NCBI GenBank assembly: GCA_050084515.1
Contig: CM114271.1
Coordinates: forward strand, 46,190,001 to 46,254,000
DNA: 64,000 bases
Direction of reading: 5' to 3'
Source: Blasia pusilla
Lineage: Eukaryota
In this document: piece by piece, positions 8,390-64,000 of the stretch
How the letters are laid out: the number at the start of each line of letters is the position of its first letter
Numbering within the stretch: position 1 is the first letter of the stretch
Translations under genes and position numbers: made by a program
The notes under the pieces: generated by a model
The model's input: the letters and a program-made list of their open reading frames with translations, nothing else
What the model was told of the DNA's origin: nothing
Database searches by the model: none

Positions 8390-8867
8390 CAACTCACACA
8401 TATACATCGAGACCCCACATAAAAAATAAGAGAAAAAAATGGCACATCTGGCCTAAAACTCCACTCCTTAGTCTACATCGGCATATCGAGCCTCGTCCAT
8501 CCTATGTTGTTAGGGAATCCAAATACTAACATCCTGGTCTTAACTCACACACATGAGCAAGAATGGTGCTCTAACGGCCCAACATGAGAAAGATGAATTG
8601 GGGAAGCCATCTTCCTCCCTTATATAGGAGTGGGAAGAGCCAAAATGCTCTTCCCCTAGATATAGCAACCCTCTAGTAACTTGCGTGCACAGGTTACCAG
8701 GGGCGGATGACCTACTGAACAAGTCACCCGGTTGTGAAAGACCCCAAAAGGAAAGTTGTCAGAAACGACGTTCTTGACACAACGGGACGAAGTTACACTC
8801 AAAAAAGTCTGTTGGCTCTCTATGTTGCCACAATAGATCTCTACCTATCGGCTACTAAGATGTGACA
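8390..8867 (-). mobile_element. Solo A+B terminal repeat of the element-1 family (A 8421-8867, partial B 8390-8420)
   Basis: Reverse complement starts TGTCACATCTTAGTAGCCGATAGG like 11821 and aligns along repeat A; it then runs directly into tgtggggtctcgatgtatatgtgtgagttg, which matches the start of B at 26312. Confidence 0.85.
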
Positions 8868-10410: not shown

Positions 10411-12094
10411 GGTGTATTATGCATTTAATATCTTAAACACTCGTCTTGTGTGTTATAAAAGCTTGCGCTCAACAGTCACATTCTCATTAATGATTAGTAT
10501 CCAAACATCATTTATTGTGCTCCGTCTCATTTTAGCTATTTTGGATAAACCAATCTTGCATCTCTCTATTCTAGGTCTTTTGTCATCCCTCAACCTCAAC
10601 ACTCCTAAACATGGTGAGATACTAATCTAACCTCCTACTTCCCAACGCAAGAGAGCCATTAAAGACTTGAGATAGACTTTATTAATAGTCTAGGGTCTTG
10701 AAATAGTGCAAGTGCAACAAATGGTCCCAATTGCCCAATGGACCTCCAATAACTCTCTATCCACGACTTAACATATATGCTCTAGGTCAAGGTCAAAGGT
10801 TAGGGTCCATAATTGGACTACATAGAGTTGGCTTATTGTCAAAACTCTAATATCGCCCTCTTAATCCATCTCGTATCCCTAGTTCATCCCCCATGATTCC
10901 CAACGTGCTATCAGACTCTTTACTCCCTTAAACTTAAATTACGTTCTAGTAGCTAACCCACAATTCCTCTTTTGGTTTTAAGTCTTAAGTTATCACATCT
11001 CATACTTAGAAAGTATTTAGATTCTTCTTCTTTTTAGAATGCTTCTAGAATGACTACCTTGGAAAAAAACTAAGCCAACTTAATAGGCTTACCAACCTAA
11101 TATTCTATGTACTAGTCCCTCTAAGACTTCACATGCTCATAATTTGTAAATATTCCACCTATTAACAAGGTCCCAAAGGTGCGTTACTTTCGGATCACCA
11201 TTAAACTTGACTTAAGTGCATCACTAAGTTTAATCATTACTTCTCCAGTAATATCATCCCAAGATGGATTTGTCTATTTCACTAATCCTAGGGCAATCCC
11301 AAGCATTCGTGATCCAATGCTAAATCTTGTTCTAGTTGCTTATCCAAATTCAACCGCTCTCCTAAAATATGCCTTTGCATCTCCTCTTGACATACATCCT
11401 AATTAAGCTCATGGAGAACTATTCATTGTCAGGCACTACCACAAACAAATTGCATTCATTCAACTATGCATCAAATGTCCAAATCTATGCACAAATTTAT
11501 TGCAAAACTATCACATCCGAAATACAGTGGCTCTCAAGCCCCAAACTTCCAAGGGTGACAACTCATATCTGTAGCATCTCCAAGTACTAACACATGTGCT
11601 TCCTTTCATTACTACATTCAAAACCACTTTGCAAAGTCATGAGAGTTGTAACTTAGTTGAAGTACAATCGCAATACATCCTTATTGGACTTTCAAACTTG
11701 ACAATTGGATCCATAGATTATGACTGCAACCCGACTTAAAAGTTATATTTTCTTACACTCGTAGTCTAGTCATAATTTAGTCATAGTTCAATTGCCAAAG
11801 GCTTGCAAAGTTCTCTTCAATGTCACATCTGAGTAGCCGATAGGTTGAGATCTATCGTGGATAGGGCGTAGGAGCCAGCGGACTATCTTGGGTGTAACTT
11901 TGTCCCACAATGTCGGATGAGGTTGAGGATAGGTCCATTGTGTCAGGAACGTCGTTTCTGACAACTTTCATGTTGAGTTCTTTTACAGCCGGGTGACTTG
12001 TTGACAAGGTCACCCGCCCCTGGTAACCTGTGCGCGCAGGTTACCAAGGGGAGGGCTATTTTTAGGAGAAGAGCCTTTTGGCTCTTCCCAACCC

Positions 12095-12314
12095 TATATA
12101 AGAGAGGAAGATGGCTTTCCTAAGCCATCTTTCTCATGTTGGGCCGTTGGAGCACCTCCCTTGTATGTGTGTGAGCTAGGACTAGGGTGCTAGCGTCCGG
12201 ATTCCTTGATAGCACAGGGTGGACGAGGCTCAATATGCTGATGTAGATTGAGGAGTGGAGTTTTAGGTCGGGTGTGCCATTTTTATTACTCTTTATTTTT
12301 AAATGAGAAAGATG
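12095..12314 (+). promoter_or_regulatory. TATA box, predicted transcript start and self-priming PBS of element 1
   Basis: TATATAA 12095-12101. CATCTTTCTCAT 12126-12137 is the exact reverse complement of ATGAGAAAGATG 12303-12314, which lies just after repeat A1. Confidence 0.75.
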
Positions 12315-18148: not shown

Positions 18149-21100
18149 TATTGGATTCTCAACATCCACTCCTCTGAGCACCATTGATTTGATTGGCCCC
18201 CTTGTATGAGGAGAAGCCTAGATCGATGGTTCCGACTTAGACGTCGAAAGAGTCATAGTAATATGACGTAGGTGGTTTACGGAGTAGCGTTACTAGGTTT
18301 ATCTAACGAAGAAAAATATTTCTATTAATAGAAACGAAGAAACAAAGAAAAATAGGTAAAAACCCTAGTTTTTCCGAGTAGTCAAATAGTCGGGAGCCGC
18401 AGCGGTAGCGCATTCTCGTATGTTGAGTTATCTCGATTCGAGTTCCATCGAAGCTCTTCAGAAGCGCACGGACGGACTAGGCCACTTTGTATCTCTAAGT
18501 TTTGTAAAGATTTGTGATTTAGTCACTTTCGCTTTTCTCACATGGTATCCGAGCGCAAAGAGGTTTTTCCAAAGTATTTTGTATCCGGCGATCTAGTGTG
18601 TTTGCACAAAATCTTGAGAGATGGCTACTTCTTCTCGTCGATTCGTGCTCGCCCTCCTCCATTTGGGTGAAGGGAAGTTAGATGGGTCTAACTATTCGTT
18701 GTGGAAGTTCAAAATGAGAACTGTTTCGAATCATTTGAGATCCGGGAAACGGCCACGTGGGTCGATTCAAATCCACAAGCTAGTTTGAGTTCGCAAGTTC
18801 ATCTTCATCCGGGGATATCGATCATGTTGTATTATTGGCATGGAGACGCAAAACGCTGATGCTCTATATGCGATTGTCACGAATGTAATCGATTCTGTCA
18901 TGACTCTCATTCAACATACAACCACCTTCTTTGTTGAGGCGTGGAACATTTTGAAGAATCAAGATGAAACGAGGAATGAGACTCGGATTCAGAATGTGGA
19001 GAATCACTTACGTCAGAAATTTTCAGAAGGAGAAAGCGCGGAGCAATTTTTGACAAGGATCAAGAATCTTCAAGATCAGATGGCGTCCGTGGGAATTTCA
19101 AAGTCTAGCGAAGATTTGGCACGCCGGATTTTGCCTCCAAGGTATGACAATTTGGTCACTGCACTGAATACTCAAGTAAGACCCACGCCGCTTACTTTTG
19201 AACAATTTAGTGCAATGTTGGTAGAAGAGGAAATGCGCTTCAAAGCAAGAGAGGGAAGTGACGCAGAATTTACTGCCAACGTACAGAGAGGTAGAAATCA
19301 GGATTACAGTTCAAATGTCAAGAAGAAATTTCCAAGAAAAGCCTTCAAATGCTTTTATTGTGGTAAGCTAGGTCATCTTATCAAAGATTGTAGGAAGAGA
19401 AGTCAGGATGAGAAGAACGGTTGTTTAAGAAGACCTAAGAAGGAGTCTGGAAATTTTGTAGAACTGGGAGAACATGAAGTAGATGCTTGGGTAGCAATAG
19501 AAGAGTTCTGCACACAGGCAGAACATACCACTAAGACAAAGAGTGAAGATGCATAGGTGCTCGATAGTGGAGCATCTAGGCATATGACCAATCATAAGGA
19601 TTGGTATAGCTCCTTCTGACCTCTCTGAGAGCCCATCGTTATTCTTGTTGGGAATAATGCAAAGTGCCTGTAGAAGGGAAAGGCACAATTTCTTTAGTCT
19701 CACAAAAGGAGATGAAAAGAAGTTAAGCGATGTCTTTATGACGTACGAGTTGAAGCGAAATTTGATTTGATGGCGTGTATTATGTGATCGTGACCTAGAA
19801 GTTCGTTTCAAGAAAAGCTGGAGCGATCATTGAGGATGCCAATGGGAAATTAGTGGGTGAAGGTATACGACGTGGAAATATCTACGAGTTGCATGCTTTC
19901 ACGACAAGTGTAGGTCTGAGATCTTAGTAGCGATAAGTTGTGGCATGAAAGATTTGGTCACCTAAGCTTTCCCTTACTAAGTCGGATGCAAAAATCTGGC
20001 ATGGTTCTTTGATTTACCAACAATTTTCGGAGTGTCGGATACTTGTGAAGCTTGTATGATGGGGGCAACACCGACAACCATTTCCACAAGAGTCCGACAA
20101 TAGGGCAAAGGCTCCTCTAGAGTTGATACATCTTGACCTCTGTGGTAAAATGAGAAACGATGGCATTAGGTGGTTCTTCCTACTTCTTTTTAGTTGTCGA
20201 CGATTATAGTAGGAAGATGTGGGTGTATTTCCTTCGTGATAAGGCAAGTGCTTTTGGAAAATTTTAAGTATGGCACAAGCTGGTTGAGAATGAGACAGGA
20301 AAGAAGGTACAAAAGCTTCGCAGCGATCGAGGAGGAGAATTCTTATCAACGAGAATTCAACAAATATTTGGGAGAGCATGGAATCAGTTTACGATTAACC
20401 ACGGCACATACACCACAACAAAATGGAGTTGTTGAGCGTCGAAACCGCAAATCTGATGGTGGAGATGGCAAGATGTATGATGAAAGCAAAAGGTTTGTGA
20501 AGGATTTTGGGTGAAGTCATTATCTTGCCGTATACATTCTAAATAGAAGTGCTACCAAGTCAGTGCAAGGCATGACTCCTCATCAATCATACTCAGGTTA
20601 GGTACCATCAGTCCAACATTTCAGGACTTTTGGTAGTGAGTGTTTTGTACATATTCCTGAAGCATCGAGGACCAAGTTGGAGTCCAAGAGCAGGAAGTGC
20701 ATCTTTATGGGATACAGTGATGAGTCTAAAGCTTATCGCCTTTGGTGTCCTGAGGAAAAGAAGATGCTTGTGAGTCGTGACGTGGTGTTCCAAGAACAAC
20801 CTCGTCAAGTGGCGGATATCAGTGGTCCGTCCACATTATCATCAAACGAAGACATAACCCACCAGAGCACACCACAGATGTTTACACCAGATCATCAAGA
20901 AGAAGAATTTGGTGATGATTACAAAGAGCAACCTGCTCTTCCACTACGGTCGTCATACCCTAAGTGGATAAAGCAGCTCTTGGATGGTAAGGATCCACCA
21001 AAGAATCGATGAAGTTGTTACACATCCAAGGAGATCCAAGAGACTAGAGGAGCAGAATAGAGCTTCCGCACATCTCGTCAACATGGCCCTGATGACAGAG

Positions 21101-23034
21101 GTCTTGAAGGTGGAAGAGCCATCATGCTTGGATGAGGACCTGGCTCATCCTCAATGGAGAGAGGCCATGCAGACGGAGATGGACGCTATTCAAAGAAATG
21201 AAACTTGGACTTTGGTTGAAAAGCCAGAGGACAAGAAGATAATACGCACCAAGTGGGTGTACAAGACCAAGTACAAGTCGGACAGTACATTGGATAAATT
21301 CAAAGCGAGGTTGGTTGCACAAGGATGCTCACAAATCAAAGGCTTTGACTTCTATGAGACTTTTGCTCCCACTGCAAGGATGACAACCATTCGAATTGTT
21401 CTAGCGGTTGCAGGAACAAGACGTTGGCATGTATACTGTACGATGTGAAGTCTGCTTTTCTGAACGGGAGTCTCAAGGAGGAGGTATATGTTTCTCAACC
21501 ACCAGGTTTTGAGACACCCGGATCAGAAGAGAAAGTTTGTTTACTTCATCGAGCATTGTATGGGTTGAAGCAAGCCCCAAGGGTATGGTATCAACGAATA
21601 GATACATTCTTTCGAGAGAAGGGTCTCATGAAGAGTCCTTCAGAAGCAAATTTGTATGTGTTTTGCGAAGATGGGATGTATATATTGATAGTCTTGTATG
21701 TGGATGATCCGATCATCACAGGAGACCCTGAGAAGAAAATAGAGGAAATGAAGGGAGTGTTGGAATCTGAGTTTGAAATGTCGATTTAGGTCTTTTCACT
21801 ACTTTATAGGACTGGAAATTTGGCAACAATCAAATTCTATTTTTCTCTCTCAGCAGAAGTATGCTAGAGAAATCTTGAAGGCATTCGGGATGACCGAGTG
21901 TAAGGCGTGGTCTCGCCAATGGAGGTAGAGTTGAAACTCGATGGAGGATGTTTCACCATTGGTAGATGAAAAGATGTCTGAAAGCTTGTAGGCGTTTGAT
22001 ATTTTTGTGTAACAAGAGACGGACATTAGCTTTGTGGGAGTATTGAGTAGGTTCTCAACTAAGCCTCGTGAGAACCATTGGAAGGCGAGGATGCGTGTGT
22101 TGAAGTACATCAAAGGCACTATCGAGTACGGCATCACCTATGGAGCAGGGACGGAAATTTTTGTGACTCACATTGGGCAGGAGATTCAGATTCTCGAAGA
22201 TCAGTTTTGGGTTATTGCTTCTTGGTAGGATCAGGTGTGGTATCATGGGTCAGCAAGAAGCAACCTACAGTGGCTCTTTCTTCTACCGAGGCAGAGTACA
22301 AGGCGGCTTGTTATGCTTCTTGTGAAGCAGTATGGTTGAGATGGATACTAGAGGATATAGGAGAAGCACCAGAAAGTGCTACTGTAATGTGGTGTGACAA
22401 TCAGAGTTGCATTGCCATAGCACATAATCCTGTGTTTCATGCTCGTACAAAGCACATAGAGATCCAGTACCATTTTGTTCGTGAATTGATCGAGAGAGAG
22501 GTTTTGAAGTTAGTCTATTGTCCAACAGAGGATAACCGTGCAGACATCTTCACGAAAGTCTTGAGCGGAGATCGCTTCACCGACATCGAAGGGTCTTGGC
22601 ATAGGTCCAAGACAAGAGTCCACATGAGAATGGATATTGAGGGGGTATTGGATTCTCAACATCCACTCCTCTGAGCACCATTGATTTGATCGGCCCCCTT
22701 GTATGAGGAGAAGCCTAGATCGATGGTTCCGACTTAGACGTCGAAGGAGTCATAGTAATATGACGTAGGTGGTTTACGGAGTAGCGTTACTAGGTTTATC
22801 TAACCCAAAATTTTTCTATTAATAGAAACAAAGAAAAATAGGTAAAAACCCTAGTTTTCCCGAGTAGTCAAATAGTCGGGAGCCGCAGCGGTAGCGCATT
22901 CTCGTATGTCGAGTTATCTCCCAGTTCAGGTTCCATCGAAGCTCTTCTGTGAGCGCACGGACGGACTAGGCCAATTTGTATCTCTAAGTTTTGTAAAGAT
23001 TTCAGTGATTTAGTCACTTTCTGCTTTTCTCACA
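18149..23034 (+). mobile_element. Full-length but decayed Ty1/Copia LTR retrotransposon nested in element 1
   Basis: LTRs 18149-18542 and 22646-23034 (TA..CA); TSD CGTTC at 18144-18148 and 23035-23039; PBS TGGTATCCGAGC at 18543 (tRNA-iMet-like); purine tract before 22646. Confidence 0.96.
18621..22600 (+). pseudogene. Copia gag-pol polyprotein (frameshifted)
   Basis: CFYCGKLGHLIKDC knuckle; VLDSGASRHM protease; WHERFGHL, VDDYSR and QQNGVVERRNR integrase; LYGLKQAPR and LYVDD RT; TEAEY, CDNQS and ADIFTK RNaseH. Confidence 0.93.
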
Positions 23035-23173
23035 CGTTCGAGCAAAGAGTGCAAAGGCGGCTAGAGTAGCACATGTTCATTTTTCGGATGTGGAGCATGG
23101 TGTGGGAGGTCAGAGTGGAGTGGCTGTTGCGGAGGTGGCTAGGGTTGCTACATAGCAACCAAAGCCGGAGGTT

Positions 23174-26100
23174 GTGTCCTCTCCGAGTGAGGTCACGATG
23201 GAGACTTGGGAGCATGTGATAGGTCTCAAGTTGATAGGAGGAGATCGACGGCGAGTTCATAGGTTTCTGAGAGGGCATTTCAATTGTTTTGCCTTCAGTA
23301 TGAGAGACTTGGGTACGCTGAAGGGTCCCGGGATACGGATTGAGTTGGCTAGTGATATGCCGATCTTTTGTCGACCCTACAGGTATTCTGATATGGAGCG
23401 AGCCTTGATTCAGAGCAGGAGTCAGGACTTGTTGGAGGCAGGACTTGTGGAGTTATCACATGGGGAGTATGCATCTGCCACAGTCATGCCGACAAAGAAG
23501 TATATGTATGGCAACTGGACGGATAGGCGGATGTGTGGAGATTACCATCCTATCAACCGACAGACGAGGTCAGATCGGTACGCTATGCCTACTCCTGAGG
23601 AGATCTTTGATGCGGTAGGGCATGCAAAGATCTTCAGTACTTTAGATCTCCGTGCTGGCTATCATCAACTTCCTATCAGGTTGGAGGACAGGGAGAAGAT
23701 AGCATTCTGGGGGATAGATCGGTTCGGGAGAGATTGCTTGTATCAGTGGCGGTTCTTACCATTTGGGTTGAAGAATGTGCCTGCAGAGTTTCAGAGAGTG
23801 ATGGATAGGATTCTGGCTGGCTTGGATTTTGTACAATGTTACATAGATGATATTCTTATCTTCAGTTCCATGGTTGAGGAGCATGAGCGACACTTGGAGG
23901 AGGTGTTTTGGCGATTGCCGTTACATGGACTGAAGTTATATCCAGGCAAGTGCAGATTCTTTCAGGAGCAGATTGAGTACTTGGGACACACCATATACCC
24001 GAGTGGGTTAGGCGTTCAGCAACGAAGGTAGAGGCTATTGCGCAGATTCCATGCCATACAGATGTGAGTCGAGTCCGAGCATTTCTTGGACTGGCGAACT
24101 TCTATCGACGGTATGTGAAGGGTTTTAGTGTGATCGCAAAGTCTTTGACCTTGTTGACGAGACTTGATCAGGTTTGGTTGTGGGGAGATGATCAAGAGCG
24201 AGCATTTCAGGAGCTCAAGGACAGGTTGACGTCCTCACCCATTTTACAAAGACCGGTTAGGGGTCGCCCATTCCAGTTACATACGGATTGGAGCATGTTG
24301 GGTCTAGGAGCAGTGCTTACTCAGAGAGATGACAAGGAGAGGGAGTTTGTTATGGCTTACGCCAGCCGATCGACCAACATTGCAGAGGCGAAGTACATCT
24401 CCTATGAGGGAGAGTGCTTGGCTGCAGTGTGGGTCGTGGCACATTTTAGGTGCTATTTATTCGGCAACCCTTTCACACTTATCACTGATCATCAGCCGTT
24501 GAGGTGGTTGATGGAGTCCGACAAGCTTACGAGCAAGCTTGCCAGGTGGGCTCTATTACTACATGAGTATGAGTTTGAGGTGGTTCATAGGCCAGGTCGG
24601 CTGAACCAAGATGCGGATGGGTTGAGTCGTAACCCATGTCCGAGTCAGAGAGACGACACATGAGCTCGATGGCACGGAGAGAGTGATGAGGAGATGGTGC
24701 CCGGTTGGCATGCATCTGCCTATCTTTGTTGGTTGACTATGGCAGGTCAGCCACAGGTGATGACTCCACTGGTGGGGTTGGATGATGAGTCTTTGGATCC
24801 GGAGGTTAGTGAGGAGGCGAAAGGTGGTCGTGATATCCATGATGACGTGGAGGTTGTGGAGTTCTTGCGCACTGGCATCATTGCGAGTACAGTGAGTGCT
24901 AGGGGAGCGGATCGAGATCCTCTGAGAGAGCCAAGAGGTTCAGGTGGGAGGGGACTCACATTTTGTGGGTATGGGGAGATGGTAGGATACGAGTGGTACC
25001 TCATCCTTCCCAGCGAGCACGTGTAGTGAGACATGTCCATGAGGAGTTGGGACATTTCGGAGTAAAGCGTACTTACAACTTACTCCAGGTTCAGTATTGG
25101 TGGCGCGGCATGCATACTGGAATACAGCAGTTTGTGGCCAGAGCATCCTTCAATGCTCCCACTCCGCAGTTACATCCTTTTCCGATTATGGGTTTAGGTT
25201 ATCGGTGGAGTTTAGACTTTGCGGGACTTTTGCCATTGACTGGGCGTCATCATAGGTACGTGTTGGTCATGGTGGAGCATTTCTCCAAGTGGATAGAGTT
25301 GGTGGCAATACCAGACAAGGCGAGCGAGGGAACAACTTATGCGTTTCTAGATCGTGTGCTTAGTCACTTTGGTGCACCGGCGGAGGTGTTGACTGACCAG
25401 GGTACCGAGTTCAGGGGAGAGTTTCAGGCCCTGTGTGATCAGGCGCCGATAGATCACCGCACCACGTCCAGAGATCATCCTGAGGCGGATGGGTTGGCGG
25501 AGAGAGTGGAGACGGTGAAGAGAGGATTGCGCAAGTATGGCTTGCAGCAGGGACAGTTGAGGGAGTGCGACCTACAGTTGCCATGGTTGACTATGGGTTA
25601 TCGCTTTAGTCGGCAGGCATCCTTTGCGTTATTTTCATCGTACTTTTTGCTCTTTGGGAGAGAGCCAGATTTACCTGCAGCGATTTGACGTGACGTGGAG
25701 GAGGTGTTAGATCTTGATGATCCAGATGTGTGGGTACAAGCATGTTCTCAGAGGGCAGAAGTTTTTCGTAGAGTTATGCCTATGGCCTTTGAGAACTTAG
25801 CTATTGCCCAACATAGAGATACATTGAGGTACGCGACCATTCGTGGAGGAGGTTATCGTCTAGGGATTAGGAGGTTTCATCATGGAGATGACGTGTATTT
25901 ACAGTAAGCGGCACCCACGACGCTAGATGTCACTGTAGGGCGCACGATCCTACGTGTGCGCGAGGTATTGCCGACCAGAGTCCTCATGTTGGAGGGACGG
26001 GATGGTATGGTTTGGAAGGATCATGTGCGCAATTGTGCGCCATGTCATCTTTGGAACGTAGATGGGACGGTGGATCCGAGCTTGGCAGTGGTACCTGCAG

Positions 26101-26240
26101 GCTTGAGGTGTATGTTGTGCGGATCTGCGAGGGGTGCAGCCACCATGTTGGTATGTGATGGTTGTTCTCGAGGCCTGACCCCCCCTCTTGATATGGTTCC
26201 CACGGGATGATGGATGTGTCCGAGATGTGTATAGGGTAGT
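23174..26240 (+). pseudogene. Element 1 RT, RNaseH, integrase and PHD finger (disrupted)
   Basis: RMCGDY, LDLRAGYHQ, PFGLKN, YIDD; TDWSMLGLGAVL, TDHQPL, DADGLSR; HEELGHFG, SLDFAG, TDQG, GLAER; PHD CMLC..VCDGC..WMCPRC with an internal deletion. Confidence 0.93.
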
Positions 26241-26899
26241 AGGTCATGTTAGAGAGATGTGATATTTTCTATCTGGAGTTGGGAGGATCCAACTGCCAGC
26301 TAGGGGGCGGTTGTGTGATCTCCATGTATATGTATGAGTTGATTTTTGTACATGTGTGGATCGATCCGTGTGTGGGGAAGATCGGTGTTGTATGGTGTAG
26401 ATGTGATGAGCGGTGTATGTTGTGTAGCGATATGTATGCGCACGACAGCTGTCACATCTGAGTAGCCGATAGGCCGAGATCTATCGTGGATAGGGCGTAG
26501 GAGCCAGCGGACTATCTTGAGTGTAACTTTGTCCCATGGTGTCGGATGAGGTTGAGGATAGGTCCATTGTGTCAGGAACGGCGTTTTTGACAACTTTCAT
26601 GTTGAGGTCTTTTACAGTTGGGTGACTTGTTGACCAGGTCATCCGCCCTTGTAACCTCTGGTCAACAAGTCTCAATAGTGGCAGACAATCCACACAAAAA
26701 TTGACTCACACCTACCTCGCAACAAAACTCAAAAATTTGCATAATAGTCGACTTACACAAACCCTCATTTACCATCTAGAAAACTATATCTCTACCAAAC
26801 CATCCGCTTCAAGAGAAATTTTTCAATTTGTACAATGGTCAATCAACACTTGATTGTGCAAGGCCTAAAGCTCCTCACAAAACCCAATATGATTAGTCA

Positions 26900-51400: not shown

Positions 51401-52740
51401 TTGGAGGGAGGACTAAAACCCATTGTGGAAAGAGTAATAGGAGATACCATGTATTTATATCTGTGGGGTCACGCGCTAACCTTTCTAATGGGAATAGCAA
51501 AGCTTGTTGGGTGATGGGGCGAAGAGCAATAGGAATGCGAGTGTAGAGTCTAGGACGAGGAAGACATGGATGGAAAGAGCGAAGGAGATCAATTTGGCTT
51601 AACCAGGTCCAAGCAATTGTTGTGGGGAGTGCAGTAGGAGTTGGTATCGGGTTAGGGATTGAAGGCCCATGCATGGATCGACAGTACCGCTGGTGTCTTT
51701 TGATCCCATTAGGAGCAAAGTCCTTACCACAAGGTATGCAACGAACCTTTGGTACAAGTGGAGAAGTAGAAGGGTTACAAGGAGAGGAGGTGGGAGGTGC
51801 AAGAGGTGGTGATGGCCGACAATGAGGGGGTATAAATAGGTTGGGGAAGGAGGAGGAGGAAGAGGGGAGATTCGGGTAGAATAGATGGGAGTTGGAAGCA
51901 AGGGCATCGATGAGATATGTGGGGATGGCAAAGTAGAAGGATTCGGTTATAATGGATCAGGATTAGGCTCAAGGCGAAGAAGGGAGAAGAGGAGAATCCG
52001 GAAGAAATGTAGTGAGTGTAATGGGTGTATTAGCATCTGGAGGAAAATGGCGAGATCGACGATGAGGAGGTGAACCAGGGGGAGAGGTTACGGTTGTAGG
52101 AGGGCGTATTAAACTAGATAAGCGAGTAGATGGATAATCCATCTCTGATGACATAGAAGTAAAGGTAGGCAAGTCTCCGAAGACAAGAAAAGACATACGA
52201 AACGTGGTTTGGAGAAAGCATGAGGATAAAGAACAAAGCAAAAGTAGTGGAGAGATGAAGATTAGGCAATACCGAATTTATGATTGAAAGTTACTATAAG
52301 AAAAATATAAAAAGTAATTGAAAAGGAAAAGTGATGGATATGGTATCGAAAGAGGTGGCTCAAGAATATGAATTTCTAATGTCCTAAACATATGTAGGGA
52401 CGAAACAATAAGGTAAGGAGTTGAAAGAGCAAGGAAGACTTTTGGGAGGAATTGACCTAAAACAAACCCGTACACAAAAATAGGCGCCTACAAAGAAGGA
52501 AGAAAAACTAGAAAACCTACTTGATATCAAAAGAATGAGCTCGTCAAGACGATCGAAACAGGGCCAAATACGCCCAAAACCGACATTCGAGAAGAAAGTT
52601 ATGAAAGAAATTGGAAACACCGAAAAAGAGGATGTGGGGAGTAAGTGAGCCACCCACCAATGACCGCTATGAGGGAATGAGTTCGTAATGTTGGGCCCAG
52701 CCCGTATGAAAAGATCCAAAAAAGCAAGAGGAATCCCTTA
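48500..52740 (-). mobile_element. CRE-like non-LTR retrotransposon with zinc finger, RT and restriction-like endonuclease (frameshifted); outer boundaries approximate
   Basis: CIPCGKDFAPNGIKRHQRYC at ~51683-51742; GVRPLAIGE, HQFGV, DVANAFNS, QDDPMG, IADD; C-terminal CVCG..H..C knuckle; DVVVADP..FVPFAVEVFG in ORF 48719-49267. Confidence 0.85.
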
Positions 52741-53057
52741 AACCGATGTGTCACGTCTTTTAGGATAGATCGATGGGATCTAATAGAGCGCCTTCATGAG
52801 TAGTGGAGGACACGCCCAGTAGGTCAAGGGTGACCTGCTGAGGCCCTTGGAAACCTGAGATGGCAGGTTTTCCCTTCGTTTCGGTTCATTTGGAGCCATA
52901 TTGAGGAACTTACTATTTTAGGTAAGTACCATTTTGAGTATATGATCGACTTACTATTTTTGGTAAGTGGCCTTTGACCTCCTACATCAGGTCAAGAGCC
53001 AAGGAGGTGACTTGGGAGAATAGGTTACCATGGAGAGAGCTTGGGAGAGGAGAGGGG

Positions 53058-53277
53058 TATACCTCAAGGAGAGAGAGCTTGAGAGCTCATTCTCTCTTTG
53101 TTGAACCTCTTGGCATGAGGCGGCGGAGCTATGGTACCTTGCCTTGTGAGTGTAACCCAAGCCTCTCATTAGGAGAGTGGGTTTGGTTTGACATGAGAGA
53201 GAGTGCACACCTTTGAGAGCTATGGTGTGAGATGGTGGAGAGAGAGATTGGATCTTACTTTACAAAGAGAGAATGAG
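53058..53277 (+). promoter_or_regulatory. TATA-like site, predicted transcript start and self-priming PBS of element 2
   Basis: TATA at 53058. CTCATTCTCTCTTTGT 53086-53101 is the exact reverse complement of ACAAAGAGAGAATGAG 53262-53277. Confidence 0.8.
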
Positions 53278-53854
53278 AGAATGAGAGAGTGAGAGAGCTT
53301 CATGGGGGAGCTCGCGGGTCACTCGCTGTTTTTGCAGGTTGGGGACCGTGTTTCCCGTTCAGCCGCTCATGGGAGTGCTCACCGGAGCAAGGGCTGCTTT
53401 CATTACTCTTTGCATTTGCCGATGTTTCGTGTGGAAGAGTGGCGCGCGGAAGCGCTGCCCAATTTCTGATAGGGATTGAGTATGGGCGCGGGTTGCCCAA
53501 TGCTGGTGCTCTTGGGAGCACCATGTAGCTTGCTGATATGTATTTTTACAGATGTTACATTTTCGTTGGGAGAAATCAGCGCGGGAGCGCTGCCGAATTT
53601 TGTGTAGGAGAAAGAGACATTGGGCTTTACGACAGTCCCCGTCAATTTTTACTGAAATGTTCGATTTTAAATATTTTTTGATGGTAGCGTAGATTGTGAA
53701 GCTGTGCATGCTGTGCAACAAACAGTGCACAATTTAGAGTTGCGAGCAAAAAGTTATGGGCAATCTTGTAAAGCTGCCATTGCTAGGTGATTTTTAGGGT
53801 TAAATCGTGCAAACCCTAAATCAGCCGCCACACCGGCGGCGGCCGTCGCCATCA

Positions 53855-53980
53855 TAGTCACCGTCAACGGTCGACGGTCAACCGTCAAAATCAACAGTCA
53901 ACCGTCACAATCAATAGTCAACCATCACCGTCGACGGTCAACCGTCACTGTCAAGGGTCCACCGTCCATTGTCCACCGTT
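53855..53980. repeat. Short degenerate ACCGTCA/GTCAA repeat tract in the 5' leader of element 2
   Basis: Many accgtca, acggtca and acagtca units. Confidence 0.75.
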
Positions 53981-55079
53981 TGGGTGCCATTGCCGCCATT
54001 ACGGAGTGGAGGGTCTTCCATGACGTTCGTTGATTCCTTGATTTGCGTCGCCACCACGTACTTTGTTTTTGGCCGCCACCGTCATCGCAGTTTCTTCATC
54101 AACCAATGAAGGCAGATGACCTCCGGTTATGGTGTTTGAGTTTTGATTTCATGCTGCTATGTTGTGATTGGTAGCCGCTCGACGACGATCGAGTATCGTG
54201 CCGTGACGCCCGTAGCCGCAACGCGCGCCGCCGATTGCAGCCGCGCCGTGCGCTCGTGGCACACCGCACCATCTCGTCGCGAGCCGCACCGTCATTGTGG
54301 AGCGAGTGTGGGATTATTATTGATTGAGGAGGGTATGCGCCGAGTGCCGCATCCCACCATCGAGGGCCATGCCGTTCAGAGCCGCGTGCGCCGCTGCAAC
54401 GCCGCACCGTTCATTGGGACCGCACTGTCTATCGAGGAGTTTTGAGCAGCATGAGTATGGGAGGAGTATGACTTGCTGATTGGAGGAGTTGTCTCCATGA
54501 TCAAGTTGGGGTCGAGATTTGCAGTTGCTGAGGAGCGACATCGACATGTGTTCGAGTTACCCATTTCGGTCCTTTACCCCGCACGTGTGAGGGATTTAGG
54601 ATTTATTTGGGGATATTGGGTGTGTGGATCGAGAGCATCATTTATGTATGTGGTTTAGGGGACATAGACCTGTGTGGGATGTCCGGAGTTGAGGGTAGGT
54701 TGTCGATGAGATGATAGCCTGGTCGATTTGCCGCACCCCGCCGCATGTTTCCGCACGTTACACGTCTCGGGGAGAGAGAGTGTAGATCGAGTGCCGCATG
54801 TTTGGGATGAGTGATTGAGGGATTCCTCACGAGGTTGAGTGATCGGGTGAGAGGGGCACGAGGGTCATCACGAGTCTGCTCGGGACTTTGAGAGGCGAGG
54901 TGGTGAACCCGAGAGTAGCTCTAGAGGTTTTACGCGGAGTGGCGCGAGGTTTCGAGGGTCTCCACGTGAGGGACCACCTCGACCTCCTTCTGTGTCATCG
55001 TCAGACAAGGGGGAGGGTGTAGAGGAGTTTGTGAGCACATCGCCACACATTGTGAGTGGTCCTACCGGTTGGGCGTTTG

Positions 55080-57400
55080 AGATGGAGGACCGGGGTAGAG
55101 GACCGCGAGGTTTTCAGGATCTGATGAGGGCACGATTGAGTTGCACGATTTTATAGCGAGTTTAGGAGTTGGTGCGACTCCCGGTAGGCCAAGAACTCTA
55201 GAGAGTTCAACCCATTTACAGCATGGAACGGTATGTTCCAGCATTTAGAGGGGGCGCCCATGGACGATTACCATGAGTTCTCTCAGAGATATGCATGTGA
55301 GATCGAGGCGTGGAGGCTCTACTATGACCCACATTATATGTCATGGACGGAGCCGTTCCCAGATGAGGAGGAGGAGTCAGGAGAGGCTACTACCTCTTCC
55401 ACTAGTGACGTTTTAGGAGGGTCACTCGACGACGGAGCAGCGATTGCACCGTCTAGTCGGGTTCGCCCCAGGTTCAACCCCGTGGTTGAGTTCTTTCTTT
55501 GAGTTGAGGGCGAGCTACCAGGGGGTACGGACGGAGAAGTTGCGGAGCATCCACGACTTCCAGAGGCGCTCGGGTGAGAGTTTGCGTGAGGCTTACACTC
55601 GCTTGCGCCGGTTGATCAACATCACTCAGGGGGTGACAGAGGCTCAGGCTATCTAGTCATGGTATGCGATGTTGGACCGGACCCTGCGGACACAGGTGCG
55701 GGAGGGGGTGCTTCTTATGAACACCTCCCCTACGTTGAGAGATGTTTTTAGGACCGCCGAGAACATTGAGCGCAACATGGCGGAGGAGAGCGTAGCCACC
55801 ATGGGTTCTGGGCGAGAGCAGCCACGATTGTCCGCACCACGTGCAAAGAACGTGGACTCCGAGATAGTTCGACTGTGGCACCACGAGCTCAGGGAGGATA
55901 CCGAGAGGCCGTGCCACAGAGACCTGCGCCTTCATATGCGGCTCAGCAGCAGCCGCCTACTATTACTTGTCGGTCATGTGGTGGAGCCCATCATCAGCGC
56001 GATTGCACTCGTCAGGGTCATGGACGTGTGCCTCAAAGATGGAGGAGGAGATGGTCTTTGCACCAGGAGGTTATCAGTGTGACTATTGTCGAGGTATGGT
56101 CATACACGCGCCAGGTGTTTTAGTTTACATCCTGAGTTACGCCTGGACCGAGGGCGAGAGGGCACCAGAGCGAGTAGCCGGTCCGGGTGGGCCTAGAGAT
56201 CGTGCTCCAGGTGGTCCCGTTGGGGGACGAGGAGCTGGAGTTGCCCGACAGGGTGGTGGAGTTGCCCATGGAGGAGGTAGAGTACCACCACCTAGACGCG
56301 CCGAGGGAGATGCCGGACGTGAGGCTGGGATGGCTGCTCAGATACAACAGCTACAGGAGCAGATTGCCGCTATGGCATTGAGGTTACCCGATGCCGGATC
56401 CGTGGCATCGACATCATATGGAGCAGCCAGAGATCTAGAGGATCTGGATGGATGTGCGGGGTTGCCCAGATGGAGGCCGCCGCAGTTGTGACGCGTGGAG
56501 CAGCCACAGAGTTGGATCCATAGCAAGGGGAAGCTAGTAGACAGACTAGGCTTCCTCAATCTTTCACGTTGTCCGAAGCGATGAGGACCCCATCGATGGG
56601 TCCTCATCAAAGTTCCTGGAGAGTTGGTAATGTTGTTGGTGTGCAAGCACGGAGGGCGATGGGAGAAGCGAGTGTGACGACTCCTATTGTTGATGCTCAG
56701 GAGGGGCATGTGTCGAGCACGTTGTTGGGGGCGGCCACCGTTGTGTACCGCACTCCTTTATTTTCTCGCTTCCGATGTTGTGCGTTGGGAGGTACGCCCG
56801 CCGAGGGGCTGGCCGCTTCACTATGTGAGCGAGTTGGAGTTCTGCATCACGTCGTGAGGTGATTGCAGAGGAGGTGATGGACCTGCCCTTGGAGCGGATG
56901 CCGGGCCGCCCACGTCATATTCATGGCAGTCGCGGGTCGCTAGGATGGCGAGATGCCTGCTAGACCCGCAATAGAGCGTGCCATGGCTTCTCCTGGTGTT
57001 GTGTTGCTGGATAACCGAGGAGAGGTCTTCGGTTGGTGAGTCCTCGGAGGTAGAGCTTTTAGTCCGCAAAGACGTCTTGTTGGATTCAGGAGCGCAACCC
57101 TTGATGTTGGGGAAAGCGTCATTGAGGATTGGGCTTGACGAGAGCCGATGTGGAGTGTTGTCCATTTCGGATCTGAGACATCCTTGGGTGGAGCGAGTAG
57201 TACCACAATATATCACCCGACATGAGGTCGTGGTGAGGATTCGCCGGGACATCCTGAGATGAGTCCGTAGCGCGCCAAGGCGATAGTGGATCGATCCGAG
57301 TCCTACGACGTCTTGGTTGGTGGAGCGATGTTATACCCGATGGGGTTTTCCCTGGATTCTTGGGAGGAGTCGTCCTATAGACCAGGATGGCGTCGGTGAT
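55080..57400 (+). pseudogene. Element 2 gag and protease (disrupted)
   Basis: MFQHLEGAPMDDY, FQRRSGESLREAY, CRSCGGAHHQRDC, LLDSGAQPLM, YDVLVG. Confidence 0.8.
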
Positions 57401-57779
57401 GGGCGCCTTAGCTCATTACCCGTTCGATTCACAGTGCGATGATCGAGCAACGGCCTGGAGAGATGGCGACCTTAGCAGCATTTAGCAGTGCCATCACTTG
57501 GCCTAGTGATTTGATTGAGGGACATGTCCATGCAGAGGATACTCCCGTTCTTGACATTTCTATGGAGAGGAGTGTTATGGTAGCCTGCATCATTCTGGTG
57601 GAGGAGAGGTGCACTGTGGGGCTCGGACCGAGGAGCTTCAACGATTGGATGATGCGACACGCGCACCGCATGGAGCGAGGCGTTTGCACCAGAGCGTGAC
57701 GGGTCTGAGGAACCCGAGGTAGCGGGGAGTGCTACGATGACACCCTTGGATACTACACCCATTGTGTGGTGTACCCGGA

Positions 57780-58731
57780 GGAGGGTATTCGAGTGTTAGA
57801 TCTCTTTGGAGGGATTAGCACCGGGTTAGCTGTTGTTTTGCAGGCAGGAGTGCGAGTACAGCAGTACTTATATGTGGAGAGTGATGATGTTGCAGGCGCG
57901 TCTCACTACGACATGTGGCGCAATTACGCCCTCGTTTTCCCGACTTATTGTGTGCGTCCGCAGATCTGGTACCGAGTTCCCTACCGAGGATATTTTGTTG
58001 TTGGGGGGCGCAGGACTTAGAGCGGTAGGGACCATTGATTTGGTCATTGCCGGTTGGCCATGTCAGGCCAATCGAGTCCGGACGAGGCGGCGGGTTGGTG
58101 ACACTCCATCCGGTTGTTTCGGGAGATGTTGAGGGTCTTACGGCGATTCTGGAGCACCAGTCTCGTTCTCCGGCCTACATTCGGAGAATGTGCCGATCTT
58201 AGAGACTCAGTCACGGGTCGTGACGAGTGCTCATCAGGTGCGTGCCTGGATCGGCCCAGCAGTGTTCTTGGATGCGGCGAGTGTAGGTTCTAGAGCCCAT
58301 CGCCCGCGTCTATGGTGGACCAACTTGGTGCCCCATGCGGTGTTATGGAGGGCGTATGCGAGAGTGGAGCGCCCCTCCCCTTTGTTAGTGGATTCCATTC
58401 GGATCCAAGTCGCCGATCACAGCGGTGAGGCACGATGATCGACCACCGCCGATCGTGGGTCACGGGGTAGGCAGGCCGTGGCGCCTTGCCCACGTTTGTG
58501 AGTTTTCCTGCTTCCTATGCATACAAGGAGGCCGGTCCTGGCTTGGTTTGGGATGACCAGGTTCAGCGGTTGGTGGAGCCCAACGCCGACGAGAGAGAGC
58601 GAGCGATGGGATTTCCCACAGGAGTGACGGCAGTACCATCAGTGTCAGAGGCATCACGACGCCATGTCTTGGGTCAGGCGATGGACCTGAACTGCTTGAC
58701 ATGGATCCTTAGCTTGGGAGTGGCTGAGTAG
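57780..58731 (+). pseudogene. Element 2 DNMT3-like C5 cytosine methyltransferase domain (frameshifted)
   Basis: GIRVLDLFGGISTG; YLYVE; DLVIAGWPCQ; ENV at ~58184; GSRAHRPRLWWTNL; ERERAMGFPTGVT; LGQAMDLNCLTWI. Confidence 0.92.
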
Positions 58732-59058
58732 TGTCGTATGAGATCGCGACAGATCACAACGGTTGCGTTGGTGAGCCCCATGCCTACCGAGACGGTGGAG
58801 GAAGTGGCTAGGGGCGAGACCCGAGGAGATCTACGCACCATGGGAGATCGGGAGAGACACCCTTGGACTTCTTGGGATGTTTTGAAGGTACGCAAGGAGA
58901 TGATAGCCACAGCATTGAGCGTGGTTTCGGGCACTGCACGTGGAGGAGATCAGAGTTTGCAGTTGGCTGTAGGAGAGCGGCCGAGTGTTGTTGTTCGAGA
59001 CGGGGTTGCACCATAGCAACCACCGATACCCGCGCCGGAGAGTCCTACCGTAGTCACG

Positions 59059-62000
59059 ATGGAGACTTGGGAGCTAGATATGGGCCCTAAGTTGACAGGA
59101 GGAGAGCGGCGCCGAATACATCAGTTCCTCAGGAGTTATAGGAGCTGCTTTGCGTTTAGCATGGAGGATTTGGGTACGCTGAAGGGACCGGGGATCCGCA
59201 TTGAGTTGTCGAGTGATATGCCGATCTTCCGACGACTCTATAGGTACAGTGATATGGAGAGGGCTCTGATTCACAGTAGGAGCCAAGACTTGGTCGGAGC
59301 AGGACTAGTGGAGATGTCGCATGGGGAGTATGCATCTGCCACTGTCATGCCCGCCAAGAAGGATGTGCATGGCAACTGGACGAATAGGCGGATGTGTGGG
59401 GATTACCGACCTATCAATCGGCAGACAAAGTCCGATAGGTATGCCATGCCCACCCCTGAGGAGATCTTTGATGCGATTGGTCACGCAAAGGTCTTCAGTT
59501 CATTGGATTTTCGAGTTGGATACCATCAGCTGCCTATCAGATTGGAGGACAGGCAGAAGACGGCATTTTGGGGCATCGATCCTCACGGGAAGGATTGTTT
59601 GTACCAGTGGCGGTTCTTACCATTTGGGTTGAAGAACGCCCCGGCTGAGTTTCAGAGGGTCATGGATAGGATCTTGGCTGTTCTGGATTTTGCTAGGTGT
59701 TATATTGATGACATCGTAGTCTTTAGCGCCACGGTTGAGGAGCATGAGCAACATCTAGAGGAGGTGTTTCGACGATTGCAATTACATGGGCTGAAGCTAC
59801 ATCGAGGCAAGTGCAAGTTCTTCTACGACCAGATTTAGTACTTGGGTCATACGATATACCCAGGGGGCCTTGGTGTTCAGCAGACAAAGGTAGAGGCTAT
59901 CTCACGCATTCCACGCCCTACAGATGTGAGCCGTGTTCGCGCATTCATGAGATTGGCGAACTTCTATCGGCGATACGTCAAGGGATTGATTCGAATGGGC
60001 GCTGACCTTGCTCACCAAGGTGGATCACGAGTGGCACTGGGGGGATGAGCAGAGCGAGCATTTCGATTGCTCAGGACGAGTTGACATCCGCACCCATCTT
60101 GAGGAGACCGATCGGGCGTCCTTTCCGATTGCACCTGATTGGAGCATGTTGGGGCTTGGAGCGGTGCTCACCCAACATGATGATGAGGGTAGAGAGTTTG
60201 TGGTGGCTTACGCTAGCCGCTCGAACAACGCCGCAGAGGTAATCACTCGTATGAGGGTGAGTGCTTGGTGCGGTGTGGGTCGCGCATTTCATGTGTTACT
60301 TATTCGGCAACCCCTTTACCATCATCACTGATCATCAACCACTGAAGTGGTTGATGGAGTCCGACAAGCTTACATGGAAGCTTGCGAGATGGGCTCTGTT
60401 GTTGCAGGAAAATGATTTTCAGGTGGTACATAGACCTGGAACGCTCAACCAGGATGCAGATGGGTTGAGTCGTAACCCATGCCCGAGTCAACGAGATGCG
60501 ACTGGAGCTCGATGGCATGGAGAGAGTGGTGAGGAGTTGGTGCCAGGATGGCACGCGTCAGCCTATTTAGGCATGTTGGCTATGGAGAGCCAGAGTGTGG
60601 AGACTTCGATGGTGAGGTCTAGTGGAGAGTCTTTGGATCCCGAGGCCAGTGAGGACACGACAAGTGGCCGAGATATTCATGATGATGGAGTAGTCTTGGA
60701 GTACCTTCGTACTGGCAGCCTTGCAAGCACCATGGATGCTAGAGAGCGGGATCGGATCCTACAGCGGGCCAGACGGTTCCGTTGGGAGGGGACACATGTT
60801 TTGAGGGTTTGGGAGGATGGCGAGTACGCGGCGAGTGCCGCATCCTTTGCAGAGAGCACGACTAGTGCAGCATGCCCACGAGGAGTTGGGTCACTTTGGG
60901 GTGAAGCGGACATATAGCTTGCTCCGATTCAGTATTAGTGGCGAGGCATGCAGACCGGCGTTCAGCAGATTTGTTGCCAGGTGCATGGTGTGTGATCGGG
61001 TCCGAGCATCGCGTTCAATGCTCCGACTCTACGCGATTGCATCCATTACCGATCATGGGCTTAGGATATAGATGGAGTTTGGATTTTGCAGGACCTTTGC
61101 CCTTGACGGAGCGTCCACGATCGTTATGTGTTGGTGATGGTGAGCACTTCTCGAAGTGGATCGAGTTGGTTGCATTGCACGACAAAGCAAGTGAGGGAGT
61201 AGCTTATGCCTTCCTTGACAGAGTCTTTGAGTCATTATGGCGCACCAGGTGAGGTGTTGCTGACCAGAGTGTACCGAGTTTATTTGTGAGTTCCAGGCCT
61301 TGTGTGATCGGGCGTTGATCGACCACCCGACGACTTGCGAGATCATCCTGAGGCGGATGGATTAGCGGAGAGAGTTGTGCAGACGGTGAAGAGGGTTTAT
61401 GCAAGTATGGCTTGCAGAGAGGTCACCTAGAGATTGGGACCTTGGTTGCCATGGTTGGCGATGGGATCTGATTCAGCAGGCAGGCATCCTTAGCGTCTTT
61501 TTCACCGTACTTGCTACTTTATGGCCGAGAGCCAGATTTATCTGCGGCCATTCGTCGAGATGTTGGTGAGGTGCTGAACCTTGATGACCCAGATGTATGG
61601 GTGCGAGCATGTTCTCAGAGGGTTGAGTTATTTCGGAGAGTGATGCCCATGGCGTTCGAGAACTTGGCGATTGCACAGCATCGGGATACGTTGAGGTATG
61701 CGACTATTCGAGGTGGTGGTTATCGATCAACTATCCGGAGGTTTCATCAAGGAGATTATGTCTATTTGCAGCAGACGGCACCGACGACGTTGGATGTGAT
61801 TGCAGGGCGCACTATCCTGAGAGTGCGTGACATTTTGCCATCGGGTGTTCTCTTGCTAGAGGGACGCGATGGTATGGTATGGAAGGACCATGTGCGTAAT
61901 TGTGCGCCATGTCACCTTCCTAACATTGATGGTACAGTAGATCCGAGCTTAGTAGTAGTTCCTGCAGGCTTGCGTTGTATGTTGTGTGGTTCTGTCCGTG

Positions 62001-62125
62001 GTGCGGCCACGATGCTAGTATGTGATGGGTGTTCGAGAGGATGGCATATGGCATGTTTGACGCCACCTCTCACTAGGGTTCCTCATGGACAATGGATGTG
62101 TCCCAGATGTACATCGAGAAGGTAG
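59059..62125 (+). pseudogene. Element 2 RT, RNaseH, integrase and C-terminal PHD finger
   Basis: RMCGDYR, PFGLKNAP, YIDD; DWSMLGLGAVL, DADGLSR; HEELGHFG..CMVC, SLDFAG, GLAER; intact C4HC3 CMLC..CDGC..WHMAC..WMCPRC. Confidence 0.94.
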
Positions 62126-64000
62126 TTCTACATTCTGACTTGTGTCTATGACATGGATGACAAGGAGGCGACTAACGATGGGGCCACATGAGCACCCGGC
62201 CTTCTTGCTCTTAGCGTCAGAGATGTATGTCATGGTAGGTAGGGATAGATGGCTATCCGGAGTTAGAGGACCTAACCACCAGCTAGGGGGCGATTGGAGA
62301 TATTTTGGTTCTTCTTGTCTCGTTGTTTGGATGCCATGAGTTGCATGGGATCATGCGTGTTTTGTGTGTGTTCGGTGTGACAAATGATGTATGTTGTGTA
62401 GCGATGTGTATCGCACGGCGGTATCACGTCTTTTAGGATAGATCGGTGGGATCTAATAGAGCGCCTTCATGAGTAGTGGAGGACACTTGATGGAGGTCAA
62501 GGGTGACTGCTTTGAGGCCCTTGGAAATCTGAGATAGCAGGTTTCCCCCGTTCGGCTCATTTGGAGCCATATTGAGGAACTTACTATTTTAGGTAAGTAC
62601 CATTTTGAGTATATGATCGACTTACTATTTTTGTTAAGTGGCCCTTGACCTCCTACATCAGGTCAAGAGCCAAGGAGGTGACTTGGGAGAATAGGTTACC
62701 ATGGAGAGAGCTTGGGAGAGGAGAGGGGTATACCTCAAGGAGAGAGAGCTTGAGAGCTCATTCTCTCTTTGTTGAACCTCTTGGCATGAGGCGGCGGAGC
62801 TATGGTATCTTGCCTTGTGAGTGTAACCCAAGCCTCTCATTAGGAGAGTGGGTTTGGTTTGACATGAGAGAGAGTGCACACCTTTGAGAGCTATGGTGTG
62901 AGATGGTGAAGAGAGAGATTGGATCTTACTTTAATTGGAGATATTTTGGTTCTTCTTGTCTCGTTGTTTGGATGCCATGAGTTGCATGGGATCATGCGTG
63001 TTTGTGTGTGTGTTCGGTGACAGCGATGTATGTTGTGTAGCGATGTGTATGCGCACGACAGATGGTAACCCGGCATCACTCTATAAGGAGAGCGCTATGT
63101 TTGAAATTGCGTATAGGAATCTATGAGCACATTTAGGAGAGAAGGAGGTCCAAAGATCCCAAGAACTTTGGAAATCTCAATCTTAAGTGGGAAAAAGAAG
63201 AACCCAAAGTTCAAGCTTGAGAAGATGAACACATTGGGCCTTAAATTGAAAAGATTGGATCACCATGGAAATAGTTACAAACAAAATTCTAAACGTCCGC
63301 CATAGTCCTCCTCCTCTTCCTCCATTCCACTCCTCAAATTCCTCTATTTTGTGAGTCAAGCATGTGTTGATTATGAATTATCATGGATGAGTCATGATCA
63401 ACACATGCTTGATTTCCAAATAAGGGTATTTATATTTAATTCCATGCATGCTATATACTCCTTTTTAAAATTTACAATATGTTCTATTGAAAATATTTAA
63501 GTCATTCTTTATGAGCCAAAATAAAAAAATCTTAAAATAGCTCTTTTTATGCCATACTTCCAAAAAACCTTTGTGGATTTATGTCTCTTGACGAACCATA
63601 AGAAGTATGTAGGAAAATTATTGGAAACACTTAGCAAGAAAAGCATTATCTACCTAGTGAGATTGAATATGTAATTTTGGATAATTAAAACAAATATTAG
63701 AATTCCAGAAAAATACTTTAGATGTAAAAAAATATAAGAAGTTTTAAAAGAGAAATATTTTTTCCTGTTAACATTATTCACAAAATTATGCCACTTGATG
63801 GAGAAATACTTTTTATCATTTGATTGAGAGATAATGAGAGTTAGATCGATAAGAGATTTTATTGATGCATATTATTGCACAACATCAATTATTATTAATA
63901 TTTTAATTAAAAATTTATGATTTTATCATTCAAAAACCTTTGAGTTTGAAATTATTTTTCAATGAGAATAAATATAAATTTATTACATATTTTACAAAAA

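Follow-up and report, generated by a model that had tools for sequence, protein, structure and literature searches.

Probable self-priming and a candidate end-joined cDNA route of integration in Gypsy-DNMT3-type retrotransposons of Blasia pusilla

Introduction

Self-priming of reverse transcription is an already known mechanism, to which the elements described here add one likely instance. In Tf1/sushi elements, plant Tcn1 chromoviruses and TAR copia elements, as far as the sources cited here describe them, the primer binding site (PBS) complements the predicted 5' end of the element's RNA over about 11-16 nt with no tRNA involved; the present elements share this complementarity and have no tRNA-type PBS. 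Neumann et al. 2019 (PMC6317226) predict self-priming for Tcn1 and TAR elements, and overall for 12% of the LTR elements of plants. The Tf1 pretzel is described as three duplexes (bioRxiv 10.1101/2022.12.06.519325), and Tf1 cDNA as retaining, in single-stranded form, a copy of the PBS at the 3' end together with PPT remnants (PMC11042837), comparable to the PBS that we found behind the 3' repeat A in two insertions. In Tf1, as described, the CA of the 5' LTR adjoins the PBS, whereas here no att site lies beside the PBS or the polypurine tract (PPT); Tf1/sushi elements also differ in having a chromodomain, against a PHD finger and a C5 DNA methyltransferase (DNMT) here.

KnitGypsy-Dnmt3 of Klebsormidium nitens (de Mendoza et al. 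2018, PMC5890265) resembles the present elements in combining gypsy domains with a C5 methyltransferase and, by the legend of its Fig. 4c, in DIRS-type A-coding-B-A-B repeats; compared by description only, it differs in that its DNMT lies in the Pol ORF, whereas here the DNMT precedes an in-frame TAG. The passages of PMC5890265 on KnitGypsy-Dnmt3 give no PBS, PPT, att, duplication or mechanism ('primer binding', 'circular' and 'target site' have 0 occurrences each in a word search), and the supplementary figures may bear on this. PAT-like and Ngaro elements, of DIRS order, are described with the A1-coding-B1-A2-B2 layout also found here; they are unlike the present elements in their tyrosine recombinase and the lack of a known primer, as against the DDE integrase, TG...CA termini, PPT and 4-bp duplications here. 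Judged by titles and abstracts, with most subscription papers and Repbase outside the coverage, we found neither self-priming nor an internal att described in this lineage.

Integration through the junction of a 2-LTR circle was reportedly proposed by Panganiban and Temin in 1984, and reports of cleavage for HIV and foamy virus are said to have followed. That route resembles the one considered here in that integrase opens a palindromic CA-nn-TG in joined DNA, and differs in that att here lies 100-140 bp from the junction and the route would be obligatory. As summarized in the literature, MLV does not use the circle junction as its principal pathway, the model having been rejected there (PMC11054761), and HIV 2-LTR circles are a side route or reserve at most (PMC4372172).

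Results

Two elements with a permuted repeat layout

The window analyzed here is a stretch of 64,000 nt of Blasia pusilla DNA, and it holds two large elements of one kind (Table 1). Element 2 (52749-63060) consists of A1, PBS, internal region, PPT, B1, A2 and B2, and its termini, TGTC...GACA, have GATG on either side. Element 1 follows the same order, with a copia element nested in it and its A2 truncated, and the element 1 primer 12-mer is also present in the third copy, at 8584-8595. Within the long 5' leader of element 2 lies a tandem array with a period of about 20 nt (53854-53966).

Table 1. Coordinates of the features in the window and of one group of 3' ends in related loci
Feature	Position	Strand	Basis or remark
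Third copy, element 1 family: truncated solo A-B, with A and only the initial 30 nt of B	8390..8867	-	
Element 1, repeat A1 (TGTCAC start; TATATAAG at 12095)	11821..12302	+	repeat comparison
Element 1, predicted self-primer	12126..12137	+	complementarity, folding
Element 1, PBS	12303..12314	+	complementarity, shuffles
Element 1, nested Ty1/copia insertion, foreign to the system	18149..23034	+	about 400-bp LTRs (92%), 5-bp duplication
Element 1, TAG-CAA-CCA (23153-23161) and decayed pol	23153..26230	+	Pfam, tblastn
Element 1, polypurine tract	26302..26309	+	conserved in related loci
Element 1, repeat B1	26310..26447	+	repeat comparison
Element 1, intact internal att palindrome GACA-GC-TGTC at B1/A2	26444..26453	.	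sequence
Element 1, repeat A2, truncated; B2 absent	26450..26660	+	repeat comparison
Element 2, left target-site duplication GATG	52745..52748	+	same 4 nt at 63061-63064
Element 2, repeat A1 (TGTCAC start; distal U3, R, U5)	52749..53261	+	95.5% to A2
Element 2, TATA-like motif (GGGG-TATACC)	53058..53063	+	position matches TATA of related families
Element 2, predicted self-primer; predicted start site 53086-53089	53086..53101	+	16-bp PBS complement; folding
Element 2, PBS, without TGG	53262..53277	+	complementarity, shuffles
Element 2, decayed ORF1: Gag, protease, C5 DNA methyltransferase (about 57709-58725)	55188..59013	+	similarity of elements 1 and 2; tblastn with intact L039 ORF1
Element 2, in-frame TAG, then CAA CCA	59014..59022	+	TAG-CAR-YYA common to elements 1 and 2, L039 and L081
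Element 2, decayed pol: RT, RNase H, DDE integrase, C-terminal PHD finger	59017..62125	+	Pfam, tblastn
Element 2, polypurine tract, last base directly before first base of B	62285..62292	+	conserved in related loci
Element 2, repeat B1 (PPT-proximal U3); B1-A2 junction is a decayed att	62293..62420	+	repeat comparison
Element 2, repeat A2	62422..62932	+	repeat comparison
Element 2, extra A at A/B seam	62933..62933	+	missing from about half of relatives' RNA reads
Element 2, repeat B2, GACA end is right terminus	62934..63060	+	repeat comparison
Element 2, right target-site duplication GATG	63061..63064	+	same 4 nt at 52745-52748
PBS-inverted 3' ends in related loci	L001 1283-1798; L022 3361-3878; L025 1412-1929		

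Other features of the window include a decayed non-LTR-like retroelement with an RT match on the minus strand (48719-51956), the C-terminal segment of which we take to resemble a CRE-type restriction-like endonuclease. A 303-aa ORF with no Pfam match lies between two arrays (419-1144 and 2933-3294) in which a palindromic 40-nt unit recurs about every 64 nt; the arrays may be subterminal repeats belonging to a DNA transposon. There are also an inverted repeat pair of about 710 bp, 88% alike (28102-28808 and 29180-29892), host gene exons with PC-Esterase (PF13839) matches (33967-35795), and tandem arrays with periods of about 351 and 57 nt (4037-5732 and 31357-31645, respectively).

Coding content and related loci

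Using an alignment of 28 integrase-PHD sequences as query, we retrieved 83 loci: the best 80 of 246 confirmed metagenome loci, two genome-contig loci and one unrelated viral locus (L083), the single weak match of a viral-contig scan. Named relatives came from Marchantia and Calypogeia (at most 80% identity) and from Sphagnum; Klebsormidium was absent among the named matches. Two intact-looking elements of the lineage, L081 (1-9285) and L082, occur in contigs filed under a cyanobacterial genome; the contigs are probably eukaryotic and binned by mistake, and the terminal redundancy of L081 is probably a collapsed assembly.

Pfam detected RT, RNase H and integrase in both large window elements and a PHD finger in element 2, and tblastn identified in both the decayed homologues of ORF1 and pol of two intact relatives, L039 and L081. 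In these relatives ORF1 (Gag, protease, PF00145) is followed by an in-frame TAG and a 1047-aa RT-RH-IN-PHD ORF, the integrase of which has rve and H2C2 domains. Segments homologous to the DNMT are carried by the two window elements and by 29 of the 83 loci (including the best 80 of 246 from metagenomes); the broken DNMT pieces in the window had no Pfam match and were identified via intact L039. The DNMT3 label for these methyltransferases is putative and based on motifs. The stop between methyltransferase and RT has the form TAG-CAR-YYA in 4/4 elements (elements 1 and 2, L039 at 5083-5091 and L081 at 3489-3497), which is presumably a tobamovirus-type readthrough context. Since the DNMT lies ahead of this conserved TAG, it would be made at the Gag level and RT-IN by readthrough. 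Some family S copies (see below) have TAA in place of TAG, likely through decay.

The elements have the PR-RT-RH-IN order, DDE integrase, PPT and target duplication of Ty3/gypsy elements; in place of two full LTRs whose TG...CA ends adjoin PPT and PBS, they have an internal att and the layout A-internal-B-A-B. Pfam gave no tyrosine recombinase match in the scanned ORFs and no Chromo domain in the two intact ORFs at E up to 0.05, where a PHD finger is found instead. The closest relative with a solved structure is Ty3 RT, and ESM Atlas matches fell into generic RT clusters, the top one mostly Streptophyta. By their sequence, the elements are Ty3/gypsy retrotransposons of the Gypsy-DNMT3 kind.

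The bases after repeat A are complementary to a segment below the TATA-like motif

The initial annotation had proposed that the bases after A1 pair perfectly with a segment about 30 nt below a TATA motif, over 16 bp in element 2 and 12 bp in element 1. An inverted-match search recovered both complements exactly, and each is the longest inverted match of its region. In both elements the first PBS base is the base directly 3' of A1, which in element 2 corrects the end of A1 to 53261, the A at 53262 being PBS base 1. The primer segment lies 28 nt downstream of the TATA-like TATACC at 53058 in element 2 and 31 nt downstream of the TATA-like TATATAAG in element 1, and dinucleotide-shuffled A gave as long a complement in 0/3000 cases for either element. 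Consistent with the proposed absence of a TGG-type tRNA PBS, TGG was absent from -6 to +8 nt around the A end in 6/6 test elements. No tRNA genes were found in the 64-kb window and the 83 related loci.

Further support is provided by three additional repeat families from the related loci: S (a label coined here), L065/66/67 and L039/L081. In the four test elements that represent them the PBS complements 12, 13, 13 and 16 nt (matched by 2, 0, 1 and 0 of 3000 shuffles), so that the counts for all six test elements together are 0, 0, 2, 0, 1 and 0 of 3000. In every test element the 12-16 nt after repeat A pair with a site in its own A, the sequences being unrelated between families, and the primer lies 26-31 nt below TATA in all families. 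Repeat A followed by PBS is present in 17 of the 83 loci (which include the best 80 of 246 from metagenomes). The pairing had been called covarying between the two window elements; it is indeed kept in both, but two sequences that cannot be aligned give no true covariation. A compensatory double change, mirrored in primer and PBS, was found in L039 versus L081. A sequence-only alignment of nine leaders (46% column identity) misplaced the PBS and was too poor for pair counting. Older family S copies retain an exact match of only 6-11 nt in 9 of 11 loci, three of these having their longest match elsewhere, and we attribute the shorter matches to decay.

Leader folding agreed with this pairing in most cases. 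With the start at an A according to the YR rule, the mean primer:PBS pairing probability was 0.66-0.98 in seven of eight leaders, while the element 2 leader, which is GA-rich with competing partners, gave 0.19. When start sites were scanned, element 2 pairing was favored only for starts 53080-53087 (0.76-0.91); it reached 0.91 from 53086, in agreement with the start predicted initially, and 0.11 from 53089, where the plant YR rule would place the start. Addition of 40 nt of U3 reduced PBS pairing to 0.00 in five of eight leaders as a local hairpin captured the primer, suggesting that this hairpin may conceal the primer copy in the 3' repeat; in L065 and L066 it fails to out-compete the PBS, and pairing remains high with U3 attached. 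In element 1 the hairpin spans the predicted start at 12108-12131 (arms 12108-12117 and 12122-12131). A hairpin is seen at the same place in L004, L011, L039, L081 and L066, so that all families inspected have one, and is weak in element 2. Nested folding gave no consistent PBS-adjacent helices, and the three-duplex pretzel of Tf1 was not recovered consistently.

Overall, self-priming is well supported at the sequence level by six elements from five repeat families, the TATA spacing, the absent TGG and the PBS copies behind the 3' repeat described below, and Tf1-like self-priming in these elements is likely. The Tf1-type arrangement proposed initially is in part supported by this comparative evidence; carrying a PHD finger and no chromodomain, the elements need not be Tf1/sushi chromoviruses.

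Repeat, att site and insertion products

The PPT reaches up to the start of B and the PBS follows directly after A, which shows that the reverse-transcribed repeat is B+A; its ends have no TG...CA, and att is internal. This att, GACA-G(C/T)-TGTC with a 2-nt spacer of GC (GT in some families), recurs across families, and the element termini lie at its TG and CA, the spacer being lost. B is 97-138 bp long in the measured families. A different placement of the boundaries, with B starting at a TG two bases past the PPT and A ending in CA, was rejected: there is no conserved CA at the A end, and the termini are at B/A. Among 10 elements with both ends intact (L054, with a damaged left end, was left out), six have an exact 4-bp duplication, two have one with a single mismatch and two have none; no exact 5-bp duplication was found among them.

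The A/B seam joins the PBS-side end to the PPT-side end, exactly in seven of nine distinct family S insertions and with an added G in two. This G corresponds to the last base of the PPT. In the element 2 family the added A, which is variable, corresponds to base 1 of the PBS; in three runs, 8/16, 8/25 and 9/14 RNA reads of relatives lack the extra A of element 2. We classed 58 of the 83 loci by hand, the other 25 being too short, collapsed, damaged or unrelated. The 40 distinct 3' ends (from the set with the best 80 of 246) comprise 22 PPT-B-flank, 15 B-A-B, two PBS-inverted and one internally deleted; the end of one B-A-B group, L057-59, is uncertain. The mirror form, A-B before A, was found in none of the 14 left ends that are distinct, an outcome with P about 0.001 on the assumption that mirror products and B-A-B ends are equally common. 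Within four elements B1/B2 divergence equals A1/A2 divergence. L039 and L081 have the order B, A, PBS, probably because assembly collapsed the repeat.

The two distinct PBS-inverted insertions (L001, and L022, which is the same as L025; flanks differ) read PPT, B, att, A, 12-nt PBS, inverted U3 and CA. As a genomic template has B after A2, the PBS behind the 3' A is most simply explained as a copy of the primer. This PBS tail may then have paired with a primer site, folding back on itself or annealing to a copy in the opposite orientation; the inverted arm has its best match in the element's own copy in L001, by a margin of one base, but not in L022.

Transcription

In each of three raw RNA runs from one study, 6574-7018 reads matched element 2, mostly at 85-95%. 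Reads with the first mate on the minus strand outnumbered the others by about ten to one, which for libraries stranded in the usual way indicates sense RNA. Transcription of relatives is on the inferred sense strand, and the reads cover 30/30 bins of element 2 and cross the B/att/A joint. No pile-up of starts was seen near 53086-53089 in the three runs, where fragmented reads from both A copies overlap. Reads also cross the A/B seam at a depth of 14-25, so the seam may be copied from an RNA template. In all three runs reads (9, 22 and 8) skip 1061 nt of pol (59184-60246), which is probably a deleted relative rather than an intron.

Discussion

The best explanation of these findings as a whole, to which we assign a probability of roughly 0.6, is self-priming followed by internal cutting of an end-joined cDNA. 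Transcription would start about 30 nt below TATA in A1; the first 11-16 nt would pair with the PBS, be cut free and prime the minus strand, by analogy with Tf1, and we consider these three steps together likely. A hairpin with adjacent U3 bases would mask the 3'-repeat copy, leaving priming to the true 5' end alone. The anatomy shows that the PPT primes the plus strand at the start of B and that the linear cDNA is B-A-internal-B-A, without terminal TG...CA. The U5 and U3 ends would then be joined, either by ligation or because reverse transcriptase jumps from one end to the other, and the DDE integrase would cut both strands after CA at the att closest to the seam, some 100-140 bp from it, so that insertion with a 4-bp duplication gives A-internal-B-A-B. 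The genomic products on balance favor this sequence of joining, internal cutting and insertion. Dead-end A-internal-B copies would come from unjoined cDNA cut at both att sites or from later B-B recombination. The initial annotation relied on the PBS to fix the end of U5 for a permutation model; the U5 end is fixed, but the mirror copies of a simple permutation are missing from the 14 left ends, and a putative asymmetry must be added to the model.

A symmetric variant, in which self-priming yields a closed 2-LTR circle cut at either att and A-B-A-internal-B mirror copies are lost by A-A recombination or missed in assemblies, seems doubtful to us. The layout is the exact circular permutation of an end-joined cDNA, HIV 2-LTR circles are described as able to be reopened and integrated (PMC4372172), and the A-internal-B forms (22 of 40) could include collapsed mirror products. 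From such a circle, mirror forms and B-A-B would be expected in equal numbers, which leaves either a bias of the cut toward the seam-proximal att or loss of the mirror form; yet B-A-B is kept in 15 of 40 3' ends, and A1 and A2, 87-95% identical, should be separated by assemblers.

A PAT/Ngaro-like route might also be considered, with RNA running through B2, an RNA-templated A/B seam and the 5'-end/PBS pairing serving as an annealing site like the DIRS ICR. The layout equals that of split-direct-repeat DIRS elements as described (PMC7192593, PMC5890265), and the RNA reads over A/B are consistent with it. We nevertheless regard it as unlikely, since PBS and PPT adjoin the seam with single-base precision, some seams have an added G or A (though no family S 5' end has that G), PBS copies stand behind the 3' A, and the elements have a DDE integrase and 4-bp duplications with no recombinase. 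Priming by a tRNA fragment or other cellular RNA, the complement in A being a leader or promoter structure, has a precedent in the half-tRNA primers described for plant copia lineages (PMC6317226) and is quite improbable here, given that the PBS is almost wholly different among families, always matches its own A and is without TGG in all six test elements. Chance complementarity in GA/CT-rich sequence, which the GA-rich leader of element 2 with its competing partners might invite, was rejected as next to impossible on the shuffle counts (0-2 of 3000 in six tests) and the fixed position relative to TATA and the A end.

Under the preferred reading of self-priming and end-joined cDNA, the value of self-priming lies in defining one cDNA end with single-base precision, while the PPT defines the other. 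With both ends so fixed, integration of a simple linear cDNA could not leave a replication-competent copy in this lineage, and integration probably proceeds via end-joined cDNA, as the genomic products suggest. We see about even odds that these elements represent an LTR lineage of streptophyte algae and bryophytes in which att has moved off the cDNA ends and end-joined, 2-LTR-circle-like cDNA is the sole productive substrate, combined with hairpin-gated self-priming and a Gag-level DNMT before a readthrough stop. Finders that require paired TG...CA LTRs would miss such elements or misplace their ends, which may account for how little has been written on the lineage in bryophytes. If true, a route proposed and then rejected for retroviruses would here be obligatory, and the DIRS-like layout of KnitGypsy-Dnmt3, reported without a mechanism, would be explained. 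A retroviral-type integrase would then routinely cut an internal att in joined DNA, making the old circle-junction question testable.
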